A stretch of DNA of 63,567 nt, the filler included, from Rhabdomonas costata (taxonomy: Eukaryota), in the NCBI GenBank assembly GCA_019059605.1. It is 47 parts of 47 records of this genome, joined end to end, with 100 filler letters (N's around TTAATTAATTAA, not from the genome) between each part and the next. Parts side by side here need not be neighbours in the genome. Positions count along the whole stretch, not along the records: positions 56,899 to 58,147 come from JAHMHO010021746.1; 46 more parts are not named here. One strand, 5' to 3'. This document shows positions 13,601 through 58,405 of this stretch, in pieces. Every line of letters begins with the position of its first letter. Within the stretch, counting starts at the first letter, position 1. The notes beneath the pieces are model-generated. The model did not search any database, was not told the DNA's origin, and saw only the letters and a list, made by a program, of their open reading frames with translations. The translations under genes and the position numbers were made by a program.

Positions 13601-14100
13601 CTCATGGGGCATAGCAGGCAGTACGCAAGAGACAGGGCTGTGTTACACGTTACACTATTCGATTATTGGCCGATGAGGATGACAGGAGAAGACGAGAGGA
13701 CACGCCCAAGCAATCACGGGAAAGGGCCCGCAGTCCCTCATACATGGCTGGAAAAGGGACAACGGGCAAAAGGCAAAGGGCACCATGGTCAAACAAAAAT
13801 CGATGCTGGGGAGCATCCCTTGCCATGGCACTGGAAGCCGACGGGCACGGGTATATACTGAAGTATGCTCACATCTTGGAAGGGTAGGAGAAAAAAGGGA
13901 GGGAAGGGAGCGGTGTGGGCCACACTCAATCAGAATTTTGCGGGGAGAGGGGAACTGTGAGTGAGAGGAGAAAGGGAACACAAACACAAACGCCTTACCG
14001 CGCGTGGAAAGAAGACAGATGATGGCGGCGAGGTGCGGCACTTGGCAGAGCCCCGCACTGAAACAGCTTTGGCAATGCGCCGCCTTCTCCCAGCGTGCGG

Positions 14101-14818
14101 TTTATAATATCCATATTGATATATTTCTTTAATATGTTTAATTTTATATTCTGTTTGTGATGATGAAAATATAATAATTTCTTTTGTATTATCTGTTTTT
14201 ACAATATGTAAGAATATATTCCATTTATTGTCATTAATAACAAGTTTATCTTTGTATATATCAATTGTAGGATATCCTGATACAAAAATCCATGATGATA
14301 TATCAATATTAAAATGTTTTGTCACTAAATCTACAAAATCTTTGGATGTTATTGTCTTATATTGATATTTTGATATATAGTCATTTAGGCATGAAATTAA
14401 TTTATTTTCAGAATAATTATATAACATAAATAAAATACATGCTCCTTTATTATATGTTATATCATCAAATATAATATCAATATTTGATATATCATTTATA
14501 TATAAAGAATGAGTATTTATATCGATGTCAAATGTTCGTAACAATATTTTATTTACAAATGAATTAAATATAATATCTTTATTTTCTATTTTATATAAAA
14601 TATAATAAGACATGAATGTTGCAAATGATTCTTTTAACCACATATCATTAAAATTGTACATAGTTACGATATTACCAAACCAATGATGTATTACTTCATG
14701 TATTATAACAGTCTTATTTTCAAAATCCATATTTTCTAAGACTTCATGTCTAAATGATATAAGACCGAAATTTTCCATTGCAAGAGGTTTTAATTTGTGT
14801 AATGAAACAAAATCCCTC
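14101..14818 (-). CDS. Peptidase M1 (aminopeptidase N-like) fragment, intronless, about 20% GC, foreign to the surrounding DNA
   Basis: The frame is open from the contig edge. It contains DFVSLHKLKPLAMENFGL (GAMEN-like motif), HEVIHHWFGNIVT...WLKESFA (HEXXH-X18-E zinc site) and FDDITYNKGA (catalytic Tyr motif). The ORF tail past 14100 runs into unrelated GC-rich DNA. Confidence 0.93.
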
Positions 14819-15199
14819 NNNNNNNNNNNNNNNNNNNNNNNNNNNNNNNNNNNNNNNNNNNNTTAATTAATTAANNNNNNNNNNNNNNNNNNNNNNNNNN
14901 NNNNNNNNNNNNNNNNNNACTTTGAACACTGGACTTGTTGTTGTGGTCAAAATAGTATGTTGCCCATTGTTTGGTTAGTCAGTTAACAGCATTTTGTGAT
15001 CCCTGTCGTCTTTTTGTCGTCGCTATCGTCTTTTGGGTTCTCGATGAGGCTTGTCGTCTAGATTCGCCAATAATAAATAGCGACAAGTTGGACATCAAAA
15101 TTTTCTGGTTGACAGCTTTGACGCGCCTCAGCGAACGTGGTGAATTGTGCTTGCTGTTGTTGGCCTTAACGTTTTTTGCCAACGTGTTGCGTTGATGGC

Positions 15200-47313: not shown

Positions 47314-48776
47314 NNNNNNNNNNNNNNNNNNNNNNNNNNNNNNNNNNNNNNNNNNNNTTAATTAATTAANNNNNNNNNNNNNNNNNNNNNNNNNNNNNNN
47401 NNNNNNNNNNNNNGTGTTTGGTGGTTGGGGTGGCGAAGCACACTGGGAAGTGAGATGCTGCGAAGAAGGCCATAACGTCCACCGATTGGTGCAACCTTTG
47501 GTGTCACCATTTGCTCTGCACGTAGGTGGAAGGTCTAGACTCCATCGAATGGATCTCTGTTGTTCCCCTTTGTTCCTTACCCATTCCCTCCACCCCCACA
47601 AGCTGGCGGTGTTGGGCCATAGTGCTACAGCCTTGTTTCCTTTCTTTGCTTTGCTGTGCCGTTTAGCTTCTTTCCGCTTCCGCAAGGCGTGACGGACCCC
47701 CCCTCTGGCTTTACCTCGCCCCTTTCTCTTTCACGAACAAGACAAACATGGACATACACACACAACCCGCAGTCCGCTCACTCGCTGATGGTGATGTCGA
47801 AACGCACAGACGTTATAGAGCAAGGGGGGCCGTCCAATGTTCTTTTTGCTGTACTTTCGTATGCATGTGCCTTGTGGGACGCTTCCAGCTTGCGACGCGA
47901 CCTTGGCTCCCCCACACCTGTTTCCAGGTTTTGTCCCTTCGGCCGAGACGGACTTTTGTGTGCACTGTGTGGCCAGCTCCGTTTCCGTTTCCGTTTACGA
48001 AGCGTTGAGGAGGTTGTTGGGTTCTTGTTCAACGTTCTCCGTTGCGTTCAAGTAAGCGCGTGGATCCTCTGTGGCGCCATAAGGCCAAAAGAGCCGTATA
48101 CAGGCATTTCCGGCATTTTTGTATGGTTCAAACGCTCAACAATGTACTGTGAAGCAGTCCCTCGCTCCATGCCTGCGTTCCCACACCAAGTTCTTCTAAC
48201 CGACGCCTTGCACGAAGGTGTCCGGACGACCGCCCGGAACCCCGGCCCCAGCCACCATTGTGCGCAACCTGGCGTTTGGCATCAACCATTAAGCGTCAGG
48301 CGCCGCCCCCGTGCACACCCGTCGCAAAAAAGACCTTGGGGTAAAGTCCTGCGTTCCCTCAATTTTGTCCTACCGTGTCGTCGGCCAGGGAACCAAACCA
48401 GTCAGGACCAAAACCTGGTGACGTCAGGGCGGTCCGCCACCGCACCGGCAAAAGAAGCCGGTCGGGCAGTTTAACGGCCTGTTTTTGTCAGACGGCTCGG
48501 CGGGCCCGGACCAATTCCGTGGCTCTTGCGGCTTCCTGCCGGGCCTCGGTCTCCGGTTATCTGATACTTAGTTACTTAACAAAATACTTTGATGATTCGG
48601 TAGAAATTAAGTTGAAACTCCTCTCTTTCCCAATCCCAAAACAAAAGCGTTTGAAGGAAACCAACCCCNNNNNNNNNNNNNNNNNNNNNNNNNNNNNNNN
48701 NNNNNNNNNNNNTTAATTAATTAANNNNNNNNNNNNNNNNNNNNNNNNNNNNNNNNNNNNNNNNNNNNTCGGAGCG

Positions 48777-49848
48777 ATGGGACCGCACGCCAGAGGCACA
48801 GTGGGGGACGCTCAGACGTTTGAGACGTGGGACGCCTTTGTAGCTTACTTGAAGATCAGGTTCTGTTCGGACACTTTTGAGTACAACATTTTGTGGAGAT
48901 TGGATAAGCTGATAGTTGACGGAAACTTTCAGTTTTTCGTGCCTCAGTTCACACTGCGAGCCAAGCTACTGAGAGGTTGTCCTTTTGTTCATGACTTACA
49001 CTTGAGGTACCATTTTATTCAAGGTTTGGTGACAGACATGCAGGCGGAGCTGATGACGAAAAAGCTTTTGAGTTTGCAGGAAAACGTTGACGCAGCCTGG
49101 GAGTTACACAGGAAACCCAGAGCCCCACCCAAGGTCATTGTTGTCGCGCCACCAGCATAGAAAGCGACAGCAAAACCGACCAGAATGGAGCTGGATTCAT
49201 TGAGATTCGGCAACTCGCCTTTTGGAGGGGCGCGGTACTCTGACCAGCCACCCGCTCGAATTCAATCACATGGTTCAGAGAGTGCGGGTGTGGTCAGTGC
49301 AAGCTCGAGGGGCCTGAGTGGGATGTCGGTTGACGGGGGTTTGGACGCCATGACGTCAGGAACATTTCTGGGGAGATCGCGTCGCCTCCCAGAGGGGTGC
49401 TGTTTGTGGAGCGTGGAGAGGCGCAAGCCAACTCAGTTAGGACCACGTCACCTAGACCCCCATCCCCAACGACCAGAGTGTACCACAGGGGGGAAGCTTT
49501 TTGAGTAGAGGAAGAGGAGGAGGATTACATAGAACCATTTCACCGGTTAAAGACAGACCAAGAGTAGGGGGTAGACCGGTGGTGTAACAGAGGTCTATCT
49601 CGCCGAGATCACCGGCGACAACAAATACCCTTAGGTTGGAAGGGAGAAGCCCGTTTACACAACCACCCTTGGACGCGGTGCAGCGGGGGGCGCTGAGGTG
49701 TTTTTACTGCGGGTCGCCAGGCCATTTCATGAATGATTGCCAGGAAATCAGGTCGAGAGCGGGTCAGTCAGCACCAACAACATTGTCATGGAGTACACAG
49801 TTTCAGGACGGGGGAACTGTCCCTGTCAAGAAGGAAACCTCAAACTGA
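48777..49848 (+). mobile_element. Decayed LTR retrotransposon gag (Ty3/gypsy-like) with zinc knuckle
   Basis: TWDAFVAYLKIRF...LDKL...F...F...LRYHFIQGL...Q.EL....SLQE..DAA matches the retrotransposon gag capsid pattern. CFYCGSPGHFMNDC (CX2CX4HX4C) lies at about 49699-49740. The frame is interrupted by stops and shifts. Confidence 0.85.
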
Positions 49849-50124
49849 AGAGGGTTGGAAGTGGGGCGACGCCAACCCGCGACATTGAGCCCAAGAGTAT
49901 TGAACGAGAGTTTTTGCCCGAGAGTGTTGCAAGTTTGTTTTCAGTCGAGCAAGAAGGAGAGTGTTGGGGCAATTTGGCCTTGCCGTGGTTTTTGGATCAA
50001 GCGGTAGGCCAGAGATACAAGGAGNNNNNNNNNNNNNNNNNNNNNNNNNNNNNNNNNNNNNNNNNNNNTTAATTAATTAANNNNNNNNNNNNNNNNNNNN
50101 NNNNNNNNNNNNNNNNNNNNNNNN

Positions 50125-51378
50125 GGTTGTTTGTGAGGTAGTCCAGGTAGTTCTTCGGGGTGACGTAGTTGTGGCGCCGCAGCTGCTGCTCGTACAGGTG
50201 GCTCTGCTGGTTCGCCTCGATGTGGACCTAATAAAAGTGAAAAACCGTAAAACCATAACATATCCCCTCCCCCCCAAATGAGAAATACTTGTCCAAATCC
50301 ACATCCACATTCGCGCATATGCATAACAACCTGCACCATGTGCTCCTTGATGGGGCCACGGAGCTCGTCGGGGAGGGTCTCCTCTCGCAGGAAGCGCTGC
50401 GCCACGGCCTCCAGGGCCTCCCTGGGCCACTTGGTGAACCAGTCGATAACGGTGCAGTTGACCAGACCGGGGAAGCTGCGGCAGCGGGTGCGCAGGGTGT
50501 CCCCAGAGGGGCTCATGCTGAGCACGACGTGGAGGTTGTTGCGGCAGCGGGAGACGAAGTAGCCCCACTTGTTGTCCTTCGTGGGGGCTAGCCCCAGCGC
50601 CACCACCTCCTCCACCACCCCACCCATCAGGCCCTCCTTCTCCTCCTCCAAGTACAGCGCCGGCACCATCCCGCTGGTCAGCATGTTGTTGATCAGCTCC
50701 AGGAAGCTCTCCTGGCTGACCTGGCAGCCCCGTCATCCCCGCATTCCAAACAACAAGCACAAGCATGACTTCGACTGCTGGATTATTCCATGTCTGTGAA
50801 CTCTGTTCGGATTCAACTCAGTGCCGCATAGAGACCGAGTCATGAATCATATGTCAAAAACAACACTGTGGGTTCTCCCCAAGACGGTCCATGGCACGAA
50901 CACCCATTGCACAAAGCTTACGCTGTGTGGTTCCTTGCCCAAAGATTCCAAGCAAACGAAGAGAGGAAGCATAAGGCGAAAACAACACAATAAAAAACGG
51001 AAGAAAAAAACGCGGTCCGACCTGGGAGTCCGTGAATAGGAACACCACAGGCTCGTTCTGCACCCCAGCGATCTGGTACAGCCTCTTAAGGTCCTCCCGG
51101 AAGTGCTCCTCGGCGTACCCGCGGCACAGCGCAATCTCGAACAGCTTGAACCCCACCGTAAAGGCCGCGAGCTTCGTTAGACTCTGCTTCCCGGAGCCTC
51201 CAACCCCGACCAGCAGAGCATTGCCTCGGTTTACGCTGATAATCCGGAGGATCCGCACGAGGTGCTCCAGGGCCATCTCGAACATCACCAGGTCCATCTT
51301 CTTTAGAGGGCTATTGTAGTCGTCCAGGATCTCTGTGGTAAGCGCTCGCACCGCAGTGTGATCGCTTACCACAACAAA
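50125..51378 (-). CDS. DNAH10: Axonemal dynein heavy chain, AAA4 region, inner-arm I1-alpha (DNAH10)-like; exons about 51378-51022, 50720-50331 and 50227 to contig edge
   Basis: Motifs: MDLVMFEMALEHL.RI.RII...RGNALLVGVGGSGKQSL (P-loop 4), FLELINNMLTSGMVPALY, NLHVVLSMSPSGDTLRTRCRSFPGLVN..IDWF..WP and RRHNYVTPKNYLDY. Two GT-AG introns of 301 and 103 nt. Confidence 0.92.
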
Positions 51379-51752
51379 NNNNNNNNNNNNNNNNNNNNNN
51401 NNNNNNNNNNNNNNNNNNNNNNTTAATTAATTAANNNNNNNNNNNNNNNNNNNNNNNNNNNNNNNNNNNNNNNNNNNNAAAAGAACAAAACACATGTGGG
51501 CACCGACAAGGGAAGACCACTGCGATGGATGGAGGCGGCTGCATACAGCAAATGCACACAGATCCCATTGTGTCGAAGAATGAGAGCAAATGGAGCCACC
51601 TCCGCGTGCGCTCCGTGTAAAGGAAATCATAAGCTGTATGAAGAACGTATGAATGTATGAATTTTCAGATGATAGCTTCAAGAGCCGTGGAAGTGTGCCG
51701 GCGTATTTGGCTGCGGGTGGGTGCGCGGCCACACACACACACATACACACAC

Positions 51753-54040: not shown

Positions 54041-57000
54041 GTCCTGAACCCCCCGCCACCAAATGGACGTGGTGTCATTTTTTTTTTTNNNNNNNNNNNN
54101 NNNNNNNNNNNNNNNNNNNNNNNNNNNNNNNNTTAATTAATTAANNNNNNNNNNNNNNNNNNNNNNNNNNNNNNNNNNNNNNNNNNNNGGGGGGTGTTTG
54201 TTTCAAAAGCGATTAGGCGAGAGCGACGAAGAAAAATCAACGAGGGGGACACAATATCGCCGCGAAGCAATCCATTCAACCGAGATACACACAGGAAAAA
54301 TTGACGGGCATAACAATAAGCCTTGCCGGCACAAAAAGCTGCAAAACGCCAATGAAAAAGGGGCGGAGGCAGCACAATATCTTGCAGTCGTGTACTCGTC
54401 GTTTTTATTGCGGGTGGTGGGAAGGAGCTGCGCTGCAAAAGTGTGCAAACCCGAAAGGGATCTCCACTTCATGTTGTTGAGGAAAGCGCAAAGAAAGAGA
54501 CGTGGAGGTACAAGAGAGCTCATGATCCAAAGCTCCCGAAATGGCAGGTCTCTACCCGCCTAAAAAGGCCTCACAAGCCAAAGCGAACAAAAAGCACAAC
54601 CATTTCAGTTCCGAAGCAATCGACAGAAAGGCTGCGCAAGAACGCGCGAGTGCGGCTCTTAGGGATCTGCTTTGCGAGCCCTCCCTGCAACGCAACGCAC
54701 AGAGCCCCGTGCGTCAGCCATCGCGGGAGGGCCGGGGTTGGGGACAAGGGCTGCTGTTCTGACCGCCTGGTAGCTCTCTGGGAGCAGAGCACAAATCCGT
54801 TTGTAGGCTTCCAGAAAGGATGTATACTTCTCTGAAAGAATAAGACCTGAAGCACCTCTCCTACCACCGTTTGTAGCGCAATCCGCCCCCTCTCCCCCGG
54901 AAGGGGATATTAGCCGAAGTTGCCAAAGATAAAACAGGTCTGGGGCTCCGACTCCCCGCTTCCAACCCATCTGCATCTGCATCTGCCCAAGCTTAAAGGC
55001 CAAAAACAATCACATCAGCAACTGACCCTGAGAAAGTTGTCTCAAGGGGGGTGTGACTCCGCAAGGCTAGCACCAGAGCGAGTGGAGACCCGACTGGCGG
55101 GACCCCGTAGCCGTTCCATCGCTTCGCGAAGCATCGCTGCCTTAACGGCAAAAAAACAAAATAAACGGAGCAGATCCTCGGCTCAGCAAACAATTGTTCA
55201 CTGTCCAATGACCACCACGCGACAAAAAACCATGAGGCACAAGCACATCGGAAATGAAGGTGTGTTCATAAGAAAAGGTCAAAAAGGTCGATGTAAGTGC
55301 GCGGCTTGAAGATAACTTAGGTGCGGATCCTTGAAATAGTGGTTTGTGTGTCATAGGCGCTGCGGGTGGTGGGGAAACAAAAAGCACGGGGGGCTACAAC
55401 GCCGCATTCTTTGCAACTGCAGAGGGTCGGGGCAACAAAAACCNNNNNNNNNNNNNNNNNNNNNNNNNNNNNNNNNNNNNNNNNNNNTTAATTAATTAAN
55501 NNNNNNNNNNNNNNNNNNNNNNNNNNNNNNNNNNNNNNNNNNNGTGTTGGGGGGCAAAAAGCCTTGAAAAAGGGGCTTTTTGGCGTCGACAAGGGCTGCG
55601 AAAGGGGTGAAAATGAGGGAACTTCGGCCGCTTGGGTAAAGTGGTGTTTCGGTTGGTTGCAATAGCGGCAAACCGCGGGGAGGGGTCCCCCTTCCTCGAA
55701 GTAGGTGGAATCCATGTTGGGATAAGCGTGCACCCTCGTTTGGTTATCCGATGGCAAAAATTCGACGATTTTATTTTTTCGAACCTAATACCCCCCTCAG
55801 GAAAATTTTCAATTTTTGGGCCCGCGGATATTGCCGAATTTTTCTCAAAAAATTTCTCAAAAAAAGCTAAAAATCGTGTTTTTGGGCCATAAAACGAAGT
55901 AGACTTCGAGTCCAAGCCGGTAAAGGTGAGGTATCCCCACATTTCGTAGAAGACGAAAAACACGCTTTGGAAGCTCGAAGCGCTGATTTTAGGCAGAAAA
56001 GGCCGATTTTCGAGCCAAAATACCACTTTTTGAGCTCCACAACGAGGACCATCGAAAGTCCGCTGACAAAGGTCGAAAATGGGTACCCTGACGTCCGAAC
56101 GCATCTGACCAACTCCCAGCATTTCCGGATGGTCCCTTCCCAGCCGTTGAACCAACGCGCCCCAACGCTTTCGCGCAGTCGCAAGGCACCACAATAAGCG
56201 AACTGACCACTGCAACGAGGCTGGGACCAATTGTGATCCCTTGTTGCATGTCCTTAGATAATACTCATAAGATGCGAATTTGGTCATAAGGGGGGGCTTT
56301 TATGCTTCCGCTTTATGGGATGGGTGGTCGCTTCCCGTTCCGTTGCTCACTCGGCTTTGCATGCTGCGCTTGACGTGGGCTGCTATTTGATAGGGTTGTC
56401 CATGTTAATGCTAAGGCCTTGGCTTTTACCGGAGGCGGGCGGGCACTTTTTTGAACTCTGCAGCCTGCAGTACTTTTTGTTGGCTTGGATATTGGGGGGC
56501 TTTGATGCGTTGGTGAGAGTTCTTTGGGCGTTGGGGCGTTAGGGCCTTAAGAGGGCCACTGGCCTGGCAAAAAGACGAATCTGTGACATACTAAAACCAA
56601 GGAAGCTAAGGAAATCAATTTGCTTTTTGTAGCCGATTGCGGGGCTTTTTGAGGCTTTGGCATTTTGGTTGGTGAACTGCACCCTTTCTTTTTGCGGTTA
56701 GAGGTTCGATACTAGTGTGAGAGGGTATCCACCCGTTGCGTCCTGAACTGGTGCTTCGGCTTTCCCACAAACACGTGATGAAACCTTGAGGTACACTCNN
56801 NNNNNNNNNNNNNNNNNNNNNNNNNNNNNNNNNNNNNNNNNNTTAATTAATTAANNNNNNNNNNNNNNNNNNNNNNNNNNNNNNNNNNNNNNNNNNNNAC
56901 AGGAAGATCGAAAGAAGGAGAAGGTACCAACAGGCAAGAAAAGCACGCCGCCTGATTCCGAGAGGTCGGTTGGCGGTTGGGATTTATTTTGGAAGCTCAG

Positions 57001-57312
57001 AAAGAGGTAAAAGAAAGCCAAGAGGGAATTTACAAGTAAGGCATTGGAAAACTCTCAGAAAAGGAAAAGCTTTAATGGGGATTGATTCTAAAGCCTGATG
57101 ATTAATTTGGAAAACTCGGTAGGAAATTTCCGACAAAATCAGCGGTAGACTTGCACTTTTATTGGAGTAGCCCTTGCCGCGGGTCAGCAAAAACGCGATC
57201 GGGGCAGGGGTCCCTGCGAGCGCCAAAAACAACATGTGTACTCTACTAAAACGCCTACAAAAGCAAAATCCCGACCCGTCCTCTTCCACCCCAGCCGGAC
57301 CACTTTCCAGCT

Positions 57313-57643
57313 TCCAGCCTAGCTCAGTTGGTTCCGCACTGGGCCAAGGGTGCATCGTGGGTTCGAATCCCAGTTTTGGGGGCTTTTCCCTTATCCCGGG
57401 CCCTATGGCCCAGCTTGCAGACCCTTCCCCATAGCTGAGTGGGCTGCGGTGCACCTCTTCCGTGCCAGAGATCCGGGTTCAAACCCCGCCCCGTGCTGAA
57501 AATTTTCCTTCCCCGAAGTGCCCTTGGGCTATGCAAGGGAGCTTTCCCCGGATCCCCGCTTCCACCCGTAGTCCAGTTGGGAAGCACCTTGCCCGGGCAG
57601 ACTATAGTGTACCGCTCCGCAGGTTCAATCCCTGCTCCAGACC
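57313..57643 (+). promoter_or_regulatory. Three tandem tRNA-like units (Pol III type-2 A-box/B-box pairs), not canonical tRNAs
   Basis: A boxes: TAGCTCAGTTGG 57320, TAGCTGAGTGG 57432, TAGTCCAGTTGG 57569. B boxes: GGTTCGAATCC 57360, GGTTCAAACCC 57476, GGTTCAATCCC 57622. T-stems pair (4, 4 and 5 bp); acceptor stems do not close. Confidence 0.75.
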
Positions 57644-58405
57644 GAAAAATTCGAAATTCTCGAAAGTTCAGCCAGAGACCGAAAACCGATTCCACCCCCT
57701 CCGGCACCTTTCAAACCGATGAGAATCGCTCTTTTCCCGCTCGGACGTGCCGTTTACGCCAAGAAGGTGCCACTTTACGGTTTGCTGGGACCATGGGCAA
57801 AGTCCCTTTAGGGACAACGGGAAGCAAGGTGGGCGACTACGGCTTTGGGAAGGGTCCAGCAGCAGAGGCAGAGTTGGCGACCAGTCACAGGTGACCTACC
57901 CCCCTGTTCTCGAGGTCGCAGCGTCAGAAAAAGGACCTCCGGAGCCTTGATAACACCATTTTATGCTCGTAAAAGGCCAAAATGTGGCCCTCAAAGGGCC
58001 ATTTTCAGGCTGCTTAGGGACGTTTTGCTCCTGCCCCCCCGCGAAATAGTCCATTTCTGGGTCAAAAAATTCGACCCCCCCGAAATGTTCTATCTCGATC
58101 CAGAATCAAAAGCGGAGAAGTCTTGCTTATTACAGCATGCCTTTTTTNNNNNNNNNNNNNNNNNNNNNNNNNNNNNNNNNNNNNNNNNNNNTTAATTAAT
58201 TAANNNNNNNNNNNNNNNNNNNNNNNNNNNNNNNNNNNNNNNNNNNNGGGGGGGGTAGTGAAAATACTGGGCTTCAGTGCATATTCGTCGCGCTTGTTTT
58301 TCAAGCTGATTTTCGACCCCCTACTATAACCTCTTAATTTTGAGACAATATTTTCTTACTCTCACAGCAAACTTCTGAAAAACTCCGGAAGTGGCTCTCA
58401 AGAAC

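Follow-up and report, generated by a model that had tools for sequence, protein, structure and literature searches.

Cassandra TRIMs are LTR retroelements with 5S promoters in their LTRs, and colugo CYN is what we take to be an example of a complex tRNA-derived SINE. TFIIIC binds A and B boxes and clears nucleosomes, and a tRNA-like U2 promoter is reportedly present in Leishmania. A repeat that carries A and B boxes is normally taken for a SINE, and rolling-circle transposons are not usually known to carry tRNA-type promoter signals. The papers given here by PMC number are cited from excerpts, and statements about them hold for these excerpts. Proto-Helentrons end in 5′ TT and 3′ CTAG and make no target duplication (PMC4067079; PMC11417382). 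Fusarium Helitron2 elements use directional multi-base targets, and one group among them has a 5′ hairpin without a 3′ hairpin (PMC5148889). DINE-1, of the non-autonomous Helentrons the one known best, was once mistaken for a SINE and is stated, in the excerpted text, to have neither Pol III promoters nor tRNA similarity (PMC2374699). In Diplonema, Helitron-like ORFs are mentioned without structural detail (PMC10161547), and the excerpt of a review of transposon-derived repeats describes tRNA-related satellites only from SINEs (PMC9659126). In the open-access literature, no DNA transposon, rolling-circle or other, was found reported with tandem A/B-box units.

Here we describe a locus where A and B boxes stand in an element with DNA-transposon ends. 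The window, i.e., the whole stretch of DNA analyzed (63,567 nt), consists of unrelated contigs of about 1.25 kb each, joined by N linkers, from a eukaryotic assembly of 97 Mb in 104,289 contigs; the contig of interest (G000:C21746, locus L001) occupies positions 56899-58147. With somewhat better than even confidence, its cassette of tRNA-like boxes can be read as a promoter-like leader that belongs to an old family of non-autonomous DNA transposons, most likely of the rolling-circle kind (HUH, Helitron-type). The parts of the window copy are given in Table 1.

Table 1. Parts of the element copy in the window and its left flank; positions count along the window.
Feature	Position	Strand	Remarks
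Flank, a different repeat that hosts the insertion, outside the element	56936..57163	+	84% identical to L017 671-896
Left terminus of the element, begins TTGG	57162..57165	+	Start of the homology to other copies
GC-rich hairpin near the left end	57178..57197	+	Weakened in the window copy by a 2-nt loss
Non-coding leader, up to the first A box	57162..57319	+	Found in 8 other contigs at 75-94% identity
Unit 1 (A box 57320, B box 57360, T4 57374-57377)	57320..57377	+	A 13.3 bits, B 17.9 bits
Unit 2 (A box 57432, B box 57476, T4 57503-57506)	57432..57506	+	A 12.3 bits, B 16.5 bits
Unit 3 (A box 57569, B box 57622)	57569..57632	+	A 13.6 bits, B 17.4 bits; first T4 57732-57735
Conserved non-coding core	57633..58147	+	Matched 27 times, on 24 contigs; continues past the contig end

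Ordinary tRNA gene clusters are present in the genome (42 Rfam matches), and 38 distinct genes were extracted. Weight matrices for the boxes were trained on 30 of these 38; the eight dropped were bacterial- or organelle-like or fold-back artifacts. The threshold for a pair was the 10th percentile of real tRNA genes, and 100 dinucleotide shuffles of the window served as background. Only three A/B pairs in the window exceeded this threshold, and the shuffles gave 0.01 pairs per window. All three lie on the + strand, with spacings of 40, 44, and 53 nt, at the places named in the original prediction, and their scores fall within the range of real tRNA genes. The pairs are real promoter-type signals and not random.

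The three units are not tRNA genes. High-scoring cloverleafs did not appear: ARAGORN called 0 genes, Rfam gave 0 families at gathering score, and an Rfam search in E-value mode returned no tRNA match for the units. Acceptor pairing reaches 6-7 bp in 28 of 29 tRNA-gene rows, but at best 5, 5, and 3 of 7 bp in units 1-3. The partial acceptor stem that was pointed out in unit 1 is in part made by deletion and is not a family feature. By comparison with L002, L003, L004, and L005, unit 1 of the window copy has lost 14 nt between its boxes, where L002 and L003 have a spacing of 54, and a further 13 nt downstream of the B box; these losses explain both its short spacing and part of its apparent acceptor pairing; the 40-nt spacing belongs to this copy and not to the family. 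The sequence does contain the described T-stems, the 4-bp stems where an anticodon arm would lie, and the 7-nt loop of unit 2. The CTT triplet in the middle of this loop, which had been likened to Lys-CTT, is found in one of five copies and is private to the window copy.

T-arm pairing had been thought to be kept by selection. Across 20 units it was not above shuffles (covariation 235/500), the outer T-stem pair forms in 8 of the 20, and pairing is largely confined to pairs that belong to the B box. In another covariation run the score beat 496 of 500 shuffles, but the rows were related and a slide by two columns scored higher. Folding z-scores of units 1-3 were 0.03, 0.54, and -0.57. With no convincing covariation and no stable fold, a selected tRNA-like structure was rejected. 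Assignment to a parent tRNA was also rejected: in the best local alignments to the 38 genome tRNAs, an incomplete set, the several copies of a unit fall on different tRNAs, and the aligned part is mostly the boxes.

Judged from the comparison of its units, the cassette is a diverged tandem trimer with a period of about 137 nt, derived from one duplicated tRNA-type A/B-box monomer. In L002, the least deleted copy, successive A boxes stand 138 and 137 nt apart. Outside the boxes, relatedness is significant for units 1 and 2 (p = 0.003) and not significant for units 1-3 and 2-3 (p = 0.11 and 0.07). The predicted multimeric Pol III-type cassette was recovered in multiple copies, with the trimer region on 5-6 contigs. 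In other subfamilies a fourth unit lies further into the element and is related to unit 1 (0/500 shuffles); an internal tandem repeat of about 630 nt in L019/L020/L021 carries this fourth A/B unit. We also found a second, separate array with four tandem units and a fifth at a period near 128 nt (L063 = G000:C45214, L104, L105, L107, and L108). Its copies are 75-100% alike, and it is related to unit 2 (0/500 shuffles). A T4 run follows only its last unit, so that the second array could be a single long Pol III transcript; a search for its ends reached neither of them. The numbers of A/B units are lower bounds from the examined loci and not genome-wide counts. The spacers of eight monomer lineages average 0.52 identity, near shuffled values, and in spacers alone 4 of 28 monomer pairs reached p <= 0.015; the common origin of the monomers is therefore old and only partly visible.

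Alignment with other copies places the start of the cassette 158 nt inside the left end of a long element, non-coding and interspersed, which we interpret as mobile. Homology covers 988 nt in the window. Because no contig holds both ends, the total length of about 3.7 kb was pieced together by walking overlapping copies at 70-99% identity and describes a composite, not one molecule. Identities from the window along this walk were 100% for L034 (the last 30 nt of the window contig, identical to the L034 start), 72% for L017, 70% for L082, 74% for L109, and 99% for L172. At least 68 contigs carry pieces of the family. Left ends of four kinds converge on the same unit-3 core; unit 3 has a homologous position in five subfamilies, with a spacing of 53 in 8 of 11 tabulated copies. 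The leader gave no Rfam match. The first 50 nt fold with z = -3.3 in L002, -5.7 in L007, and -1.8 in the window copy relative to base shuffles; a 5′ hairpin of this kind is present in L001-type and L016-type left ends and absent from six L028-type ends. In the distal part, a decayed protein gene was considered and rejected, with no Pfam match, no Atlas hit, and 0 matches among 1.84 billion representatives. Codon periodicity was absent there (753/744/791 and 765/668/706, versus 1705/951/920 in a coding control). A resemblance of the distal part to RepHel, noted by eye, was discarded as well, since searches with RepHel profiles gave no match.

The positions of the element ends were placed by eye with TT as the anchor. 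Left ends start with TT in 14/14 and TTGG in 10/14 cases, counts of TT that are for this reason partly circular; a T three bases upstream, present in 14/14, is not affected. The base just upstream of the left end is a purine in 12/14 and A in 3/14. This count omits L008 (degenerate), L078 and L174 (joins), L182 (end not seen), and L079 and L080, which likely represent the same sites as L074 and L031. Four further independent left flanks from another subfamily, found afterwards, all fit (4/4). Right ends fall into two branches, six copies losing homology at one point and two at another. They stop without a tail, at CTAG in 7/8 and at TTAA in 1/8, and are followed by TT in 7/8 and by TTGG in 5/8; L022, which stops early, and both joins are omitted here. 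In L078 and L174 a right end is directly joined to a left end, head to tail, and some of the end joins could be fakes, because fold-back contigs suggest amplification chimeras. No terminal inverted repeats were found: the longest inverted match was 5-7 nt in 10 of 11 end pairs and 8 nt in one, with the two ends taken from different copies. Folding of the right ends revealed no 3′ hairpin (z about -0.9 to 0.5, with one exception at -2.2).

The target is directional, T-N-R followed by TT and often TTGG. On both sides it resembles the end-to-end junction, which leaves a short imperfect direct repeat at the ends of a copy. The repeat flanking the window copy continues in L017 without the element, and homology between the two stops at the TT, the only bases that the window flank shares with this empty site. 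The right end of L113 lies inside another repeat, of which 22 other copies show the bases beyond to be target. These two one-sided empty-site comparisons fit the absence of a variable duplication and are compatible with a fixed repeat of 2-4 bases, target duplication having been tested only indirectly.

Like the proto-Helentron of Phytophthora and Helitron2/HLE2, the element combines 5′ TT and 3′ CTAG with a directional target (PMC4067079; PMC11417382; PMC5148889), and it shares with them, as far as they are described there, tandem and chimeric copies and, in some subfamilies only, a 5′ stem-loop. Unlike them, it has neither the 12-nt asymmetric inverted repeat nor RepHel, its target mostly has G instead of A before the TT, and it contains three to four Pol III A/B-box monomers, a feature outside the excerpted descriptions. 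With Helitron1 (HLE1) it shares the 3′ CTRR end, in agreement with CTAG at 7/8 right ends, but not the 5′ TC start, the A|T target, or the 3′ subterminal hairpin. The inverted repeat of Helitron2 (excerpted in PMC3627910) is likewise absent. With no 3′ hairpin and no asymmetric inverted repeat, the element corresponds fully to neither Helitron1 nor Helitron2. DINE-1/HINE non-autonomous Helentrons are similar in being non-coding, with variable internal tandems and insertion at TT (PMC2374699; PMC4067079); DINE-1 differs, in the excerpt, by subterminal inverted repeats and a 3′ palindrome, whereas our element has Pol III-type promoters and no inverted repeats. With complex (dimeric or trimeric) tRNA-derived SINEs it shares tandem A/B heads and the lack of a cloverleaf (PMC3531059), but it is multi-kb, starts upstream of the first A box, has internal T runs and DNA-type ends, and has no tail. 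The Cassandra TRIMs offer a parallel as non-SINE mobile elements with a Pol III promoter in a terminal region; theirs is of 5S type within an LTR, whereas here tandem tRNA-type promoters lie in a DNA-type element. On balance, and with somewhat better than even confidence, the element appears to behave like a non-autonomous Helitron-type transposon, without assignment to a named group.

Within subfamilies, identity is flat at 0.82-0.84 for boxes and surroundings alike, with B box and spacer both at 0.83-0.84. Between subfamilies (unit 3, 10 sequences) the B box retains 0.79 identity, the A box 0.64, the spacer 0.52, and the core 0.66. Unit 3 of the other subfamilies was found via the downstream core or the left end and not via the boxes. 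In line with the impression of the original prediction that the boxes look selected, the B box persists between subfamilies where spacers are nearly randomized; the A box is only average, no better than the core, and two non-box windows of the core are conserved like the B box (0.82-0.83). In a neutral simulation both boxes stayed above threshold in 0.3% of lineages at spacer divergence and in 3% at a lower divergence. At least one copy still has the B box in each of subfamilies I, II, IV, and V and the A box in I, II, and III, a retention count that is biased because the units of L064-L072 and L063 were located by the B-box pattern. Neutral decay within subfamilies together with persistence between them suggests that selection acted on the element and not on host loci, and the pattern would fit selection on master copies with neutral decay after insertion. 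It is reasonably likely, in our view, that TFIIIC bound the boxes and that selection on copies still actively moving maintained them; TFIIIC binding of A/B boxes and the clearing of nucleosomes are discussed in the excerpt of PMC2784804.

Fixed ends, the absence of inverted repeats, a directional target, end joins, and internal tandems together point to a single-strand or circle-based DNA element. Tandem duplication of a single tRNA-type A/B-box monomer, 158 nt inside a fixed left end, gave rise to the cassette. In a possible course of events, a RepHel transposase of the genome would nick the end junction and the look-alike target, and the element would be copied without target duplication. 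The most likely benefit of the boxes would be a left end that TFIIIC or short Pol III transcripts keep free of nucleosomes and silencing and accessible to the transposase; alternatively, the boxes may have helped to express an autonomous ancestor. Inserted copies would then decay neutrally. The genome has 15 matches to Helitron Rep domains, 13 of them over cut-off, and the contigs concerned also carry PIF1 helicase frames. The 15 RepHel loci contain no unit and no family DNA, on contigs too short to show element ends. A bolder and more doubtful reading is that a novel rolling-circle group captured a tRNA-type Pol III promoter, arrayed it as 3-5 monomers near its left end under selection in at least five subfamilies plus a second related array, and uses TFIIIC/Pol III so that the element stays open, escapes silencing, or is expressed; relatives of the host lineage, probably a euglenozoan one, have no ordinary Pol II promoters.

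A tyrosine (or serine) recombinase could also have moved the same element, which would then be a Crypton-like or a non-autonomous VIPER/Ngaro-type piece, excised as a circle and recombining via a short core common to end junction and target. The likeness of these two sequences, with the short imperfect direct repeats that follow from it, is what makes a Crypton-like recombinase or a Replitron-like enzyme possible, and circles would explain the head-to-tail joins equally well. Cryptons have terminal direct repeats of 4-6 bp and no inverted repeats (PMC3212892); short direct similarity at the ends without inverted repeats is a feature of Replitrons as well, and these insert directionally (PMC10288648), as does our element. 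Yet no matching enzyme for either group was found in the assembly, and Pol III units are absent from the excerpted descriptions of both. DUF3504 and NDC10_II gave 0 matches in the genome, a weak result in an incomplete assembly where the controls were blank as well; only two integrase matches were obtained, neither similar to the family, and the ends show no inverted recombinase-binding arms, no split direct repeats, and none of the VIPER/TATE-type split repeats described in the excerpt of PMC6681497. We regard a recombinase as rather unlikely. Rolling-circle movement by an HUH enzyme other than RepHel, Replitron-like or undescribed, shares the directional insertion and the short terminal direct repeats of Replitrons (PMC10288648), but Replitron_HUH had 0 matches in the genome (weak, the control being blank), whereas RepHel is present, and this variant seems improbable to us.

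The tandem tRNA-type internal promoters also recall a non-LTR retroposon, either the trimeric tRNA-derived SINE or retroelement head first proposed or a minus-strand LINE derivative whose 3′ end is the fixed left end. Head and core are shared by several different distal parts, many copies end early, and the L063-type array without T4 between its units is readable as one Pol III transcript. On the other hand, both ends are fixed and DNA-transposon-like and lack a poly(A) or repeat tail, 158 nt of the element precede the first A box, and T4 runs follow the units. A tRNA-derived SINE would have at least 60% identity to a tRNA over 60 nt; outside the boxes, no unit gave a convincing match of this length among the 38 genome tRNAs. 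The length of about 3.7 kb also exceeds the SINE definition of under 700 bp to 1 kb in the excerpt of PMC3531059. The SINE-head proposal was given up on these grounds, and a retroposon has in our view only a small chance of being correct. Smaller still, and indeed very slight, is the probability that the cassette serves the host (as a small-RNA array, as a TFIIIC boundary, or, in the style of trypanosomatids, as an extragenic promoter for a neighboring RNA gene) or that it is three dead tRNA genes. Box scores do equal those of real tRNA promoters. Extragenic A/B boxes drive U3 in trypanosomatids (PMC2784804). But flanks are unrelated among copies, boxes decay like their surroundings within subfamilies, the units show neither covariation nor a stable fold, and no Rfam RNA gene lies beside them, which speaks against the suggested small-RNA array or boundary element. 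The only U6 gene found has no A/B boxes on its 904-nt contig and gives no support to a trypanosomatid-type snRNA promoter, which was rejected. Three dead tRNA genes do not account for a multi-copy cassette whose units, outside the boxes, are akin to one another and not to separate tRNAs.

If the boxes of the putative rolling-circle element work, a DNA transposon would here be making use of the Pol III machinery and spreading TFIIIC sites through the genome, and it would offer a testable case for TFIIIC sites shielding mobile DNA from silencing. If they do not work, the element would still be a new repeat family that SINE-based annotation would misname.

Several observations were made beside the cassette. 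The genome contains a divergent Helitron-like RepHel clade (L158-L161, L127, L130, and L131; G000:C47, C86, C333, C342, and others) with frames of 280-1073 codons, PIF1 helicase frames on two contigs, and a long N-terminal region without assignment. Fold-back inverted copies near contig ends were seen in L014, L113, L115, and L008, and L041 holds a perfectly palindromic tRNA-Gly half; the fold-back contigs and L041 are likely amplification chimeras in the assembly. Inversions in L005, L017, and L033 had been considered as twin-priming, and this was dropped, as fold-backs point to amplification chimeras; the L017 case is a neighboring repeat. In L005 (G000:C1156) the family copy with the inverted left part lies after exons of a helicase-like gene, presumably of Ski2/Mtr4-type RNA helicase.

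Among the RNA genes, the U6 snRNA gene L180 (G000:C41391:188-289, -) has no tRNA or A/B boxes on its contig, an arrangement that we assume to be unlike trypanosomatid U6. Two near-identical pairs of CCA-encoding tRNAs occur in L039 and L040, and the anticodon of the Leu(TAA)-like gene in L040 reads TTA and was labeled Stop by ARAGORN. L035, L178, and L179 are probable bacterial contigs; among them are two integrase fragments and a tRNA pair of bacterial appearance that encodes CCA. At 1290-1390 of L058 a single B box with a distant A-like box, without a homolog among the examined loci, is possibly an intron-bearing or decayed tRNA. Elsewhere in the window, an AT-rich frame at 13930-14862 (-), which by its motif we take to be M1 aminopeptidase-like, runs into GC-richer DNA and may be a contaminant or chimera, and a frame at 48717-49160 (+) resembles by eye a retrotransposon gag fragment. 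Axonemal dynein heavy-chain exons lie on two neighboring contigs, at 50073-50732 (-), confirmed by search, and at 50854-51426 (-).
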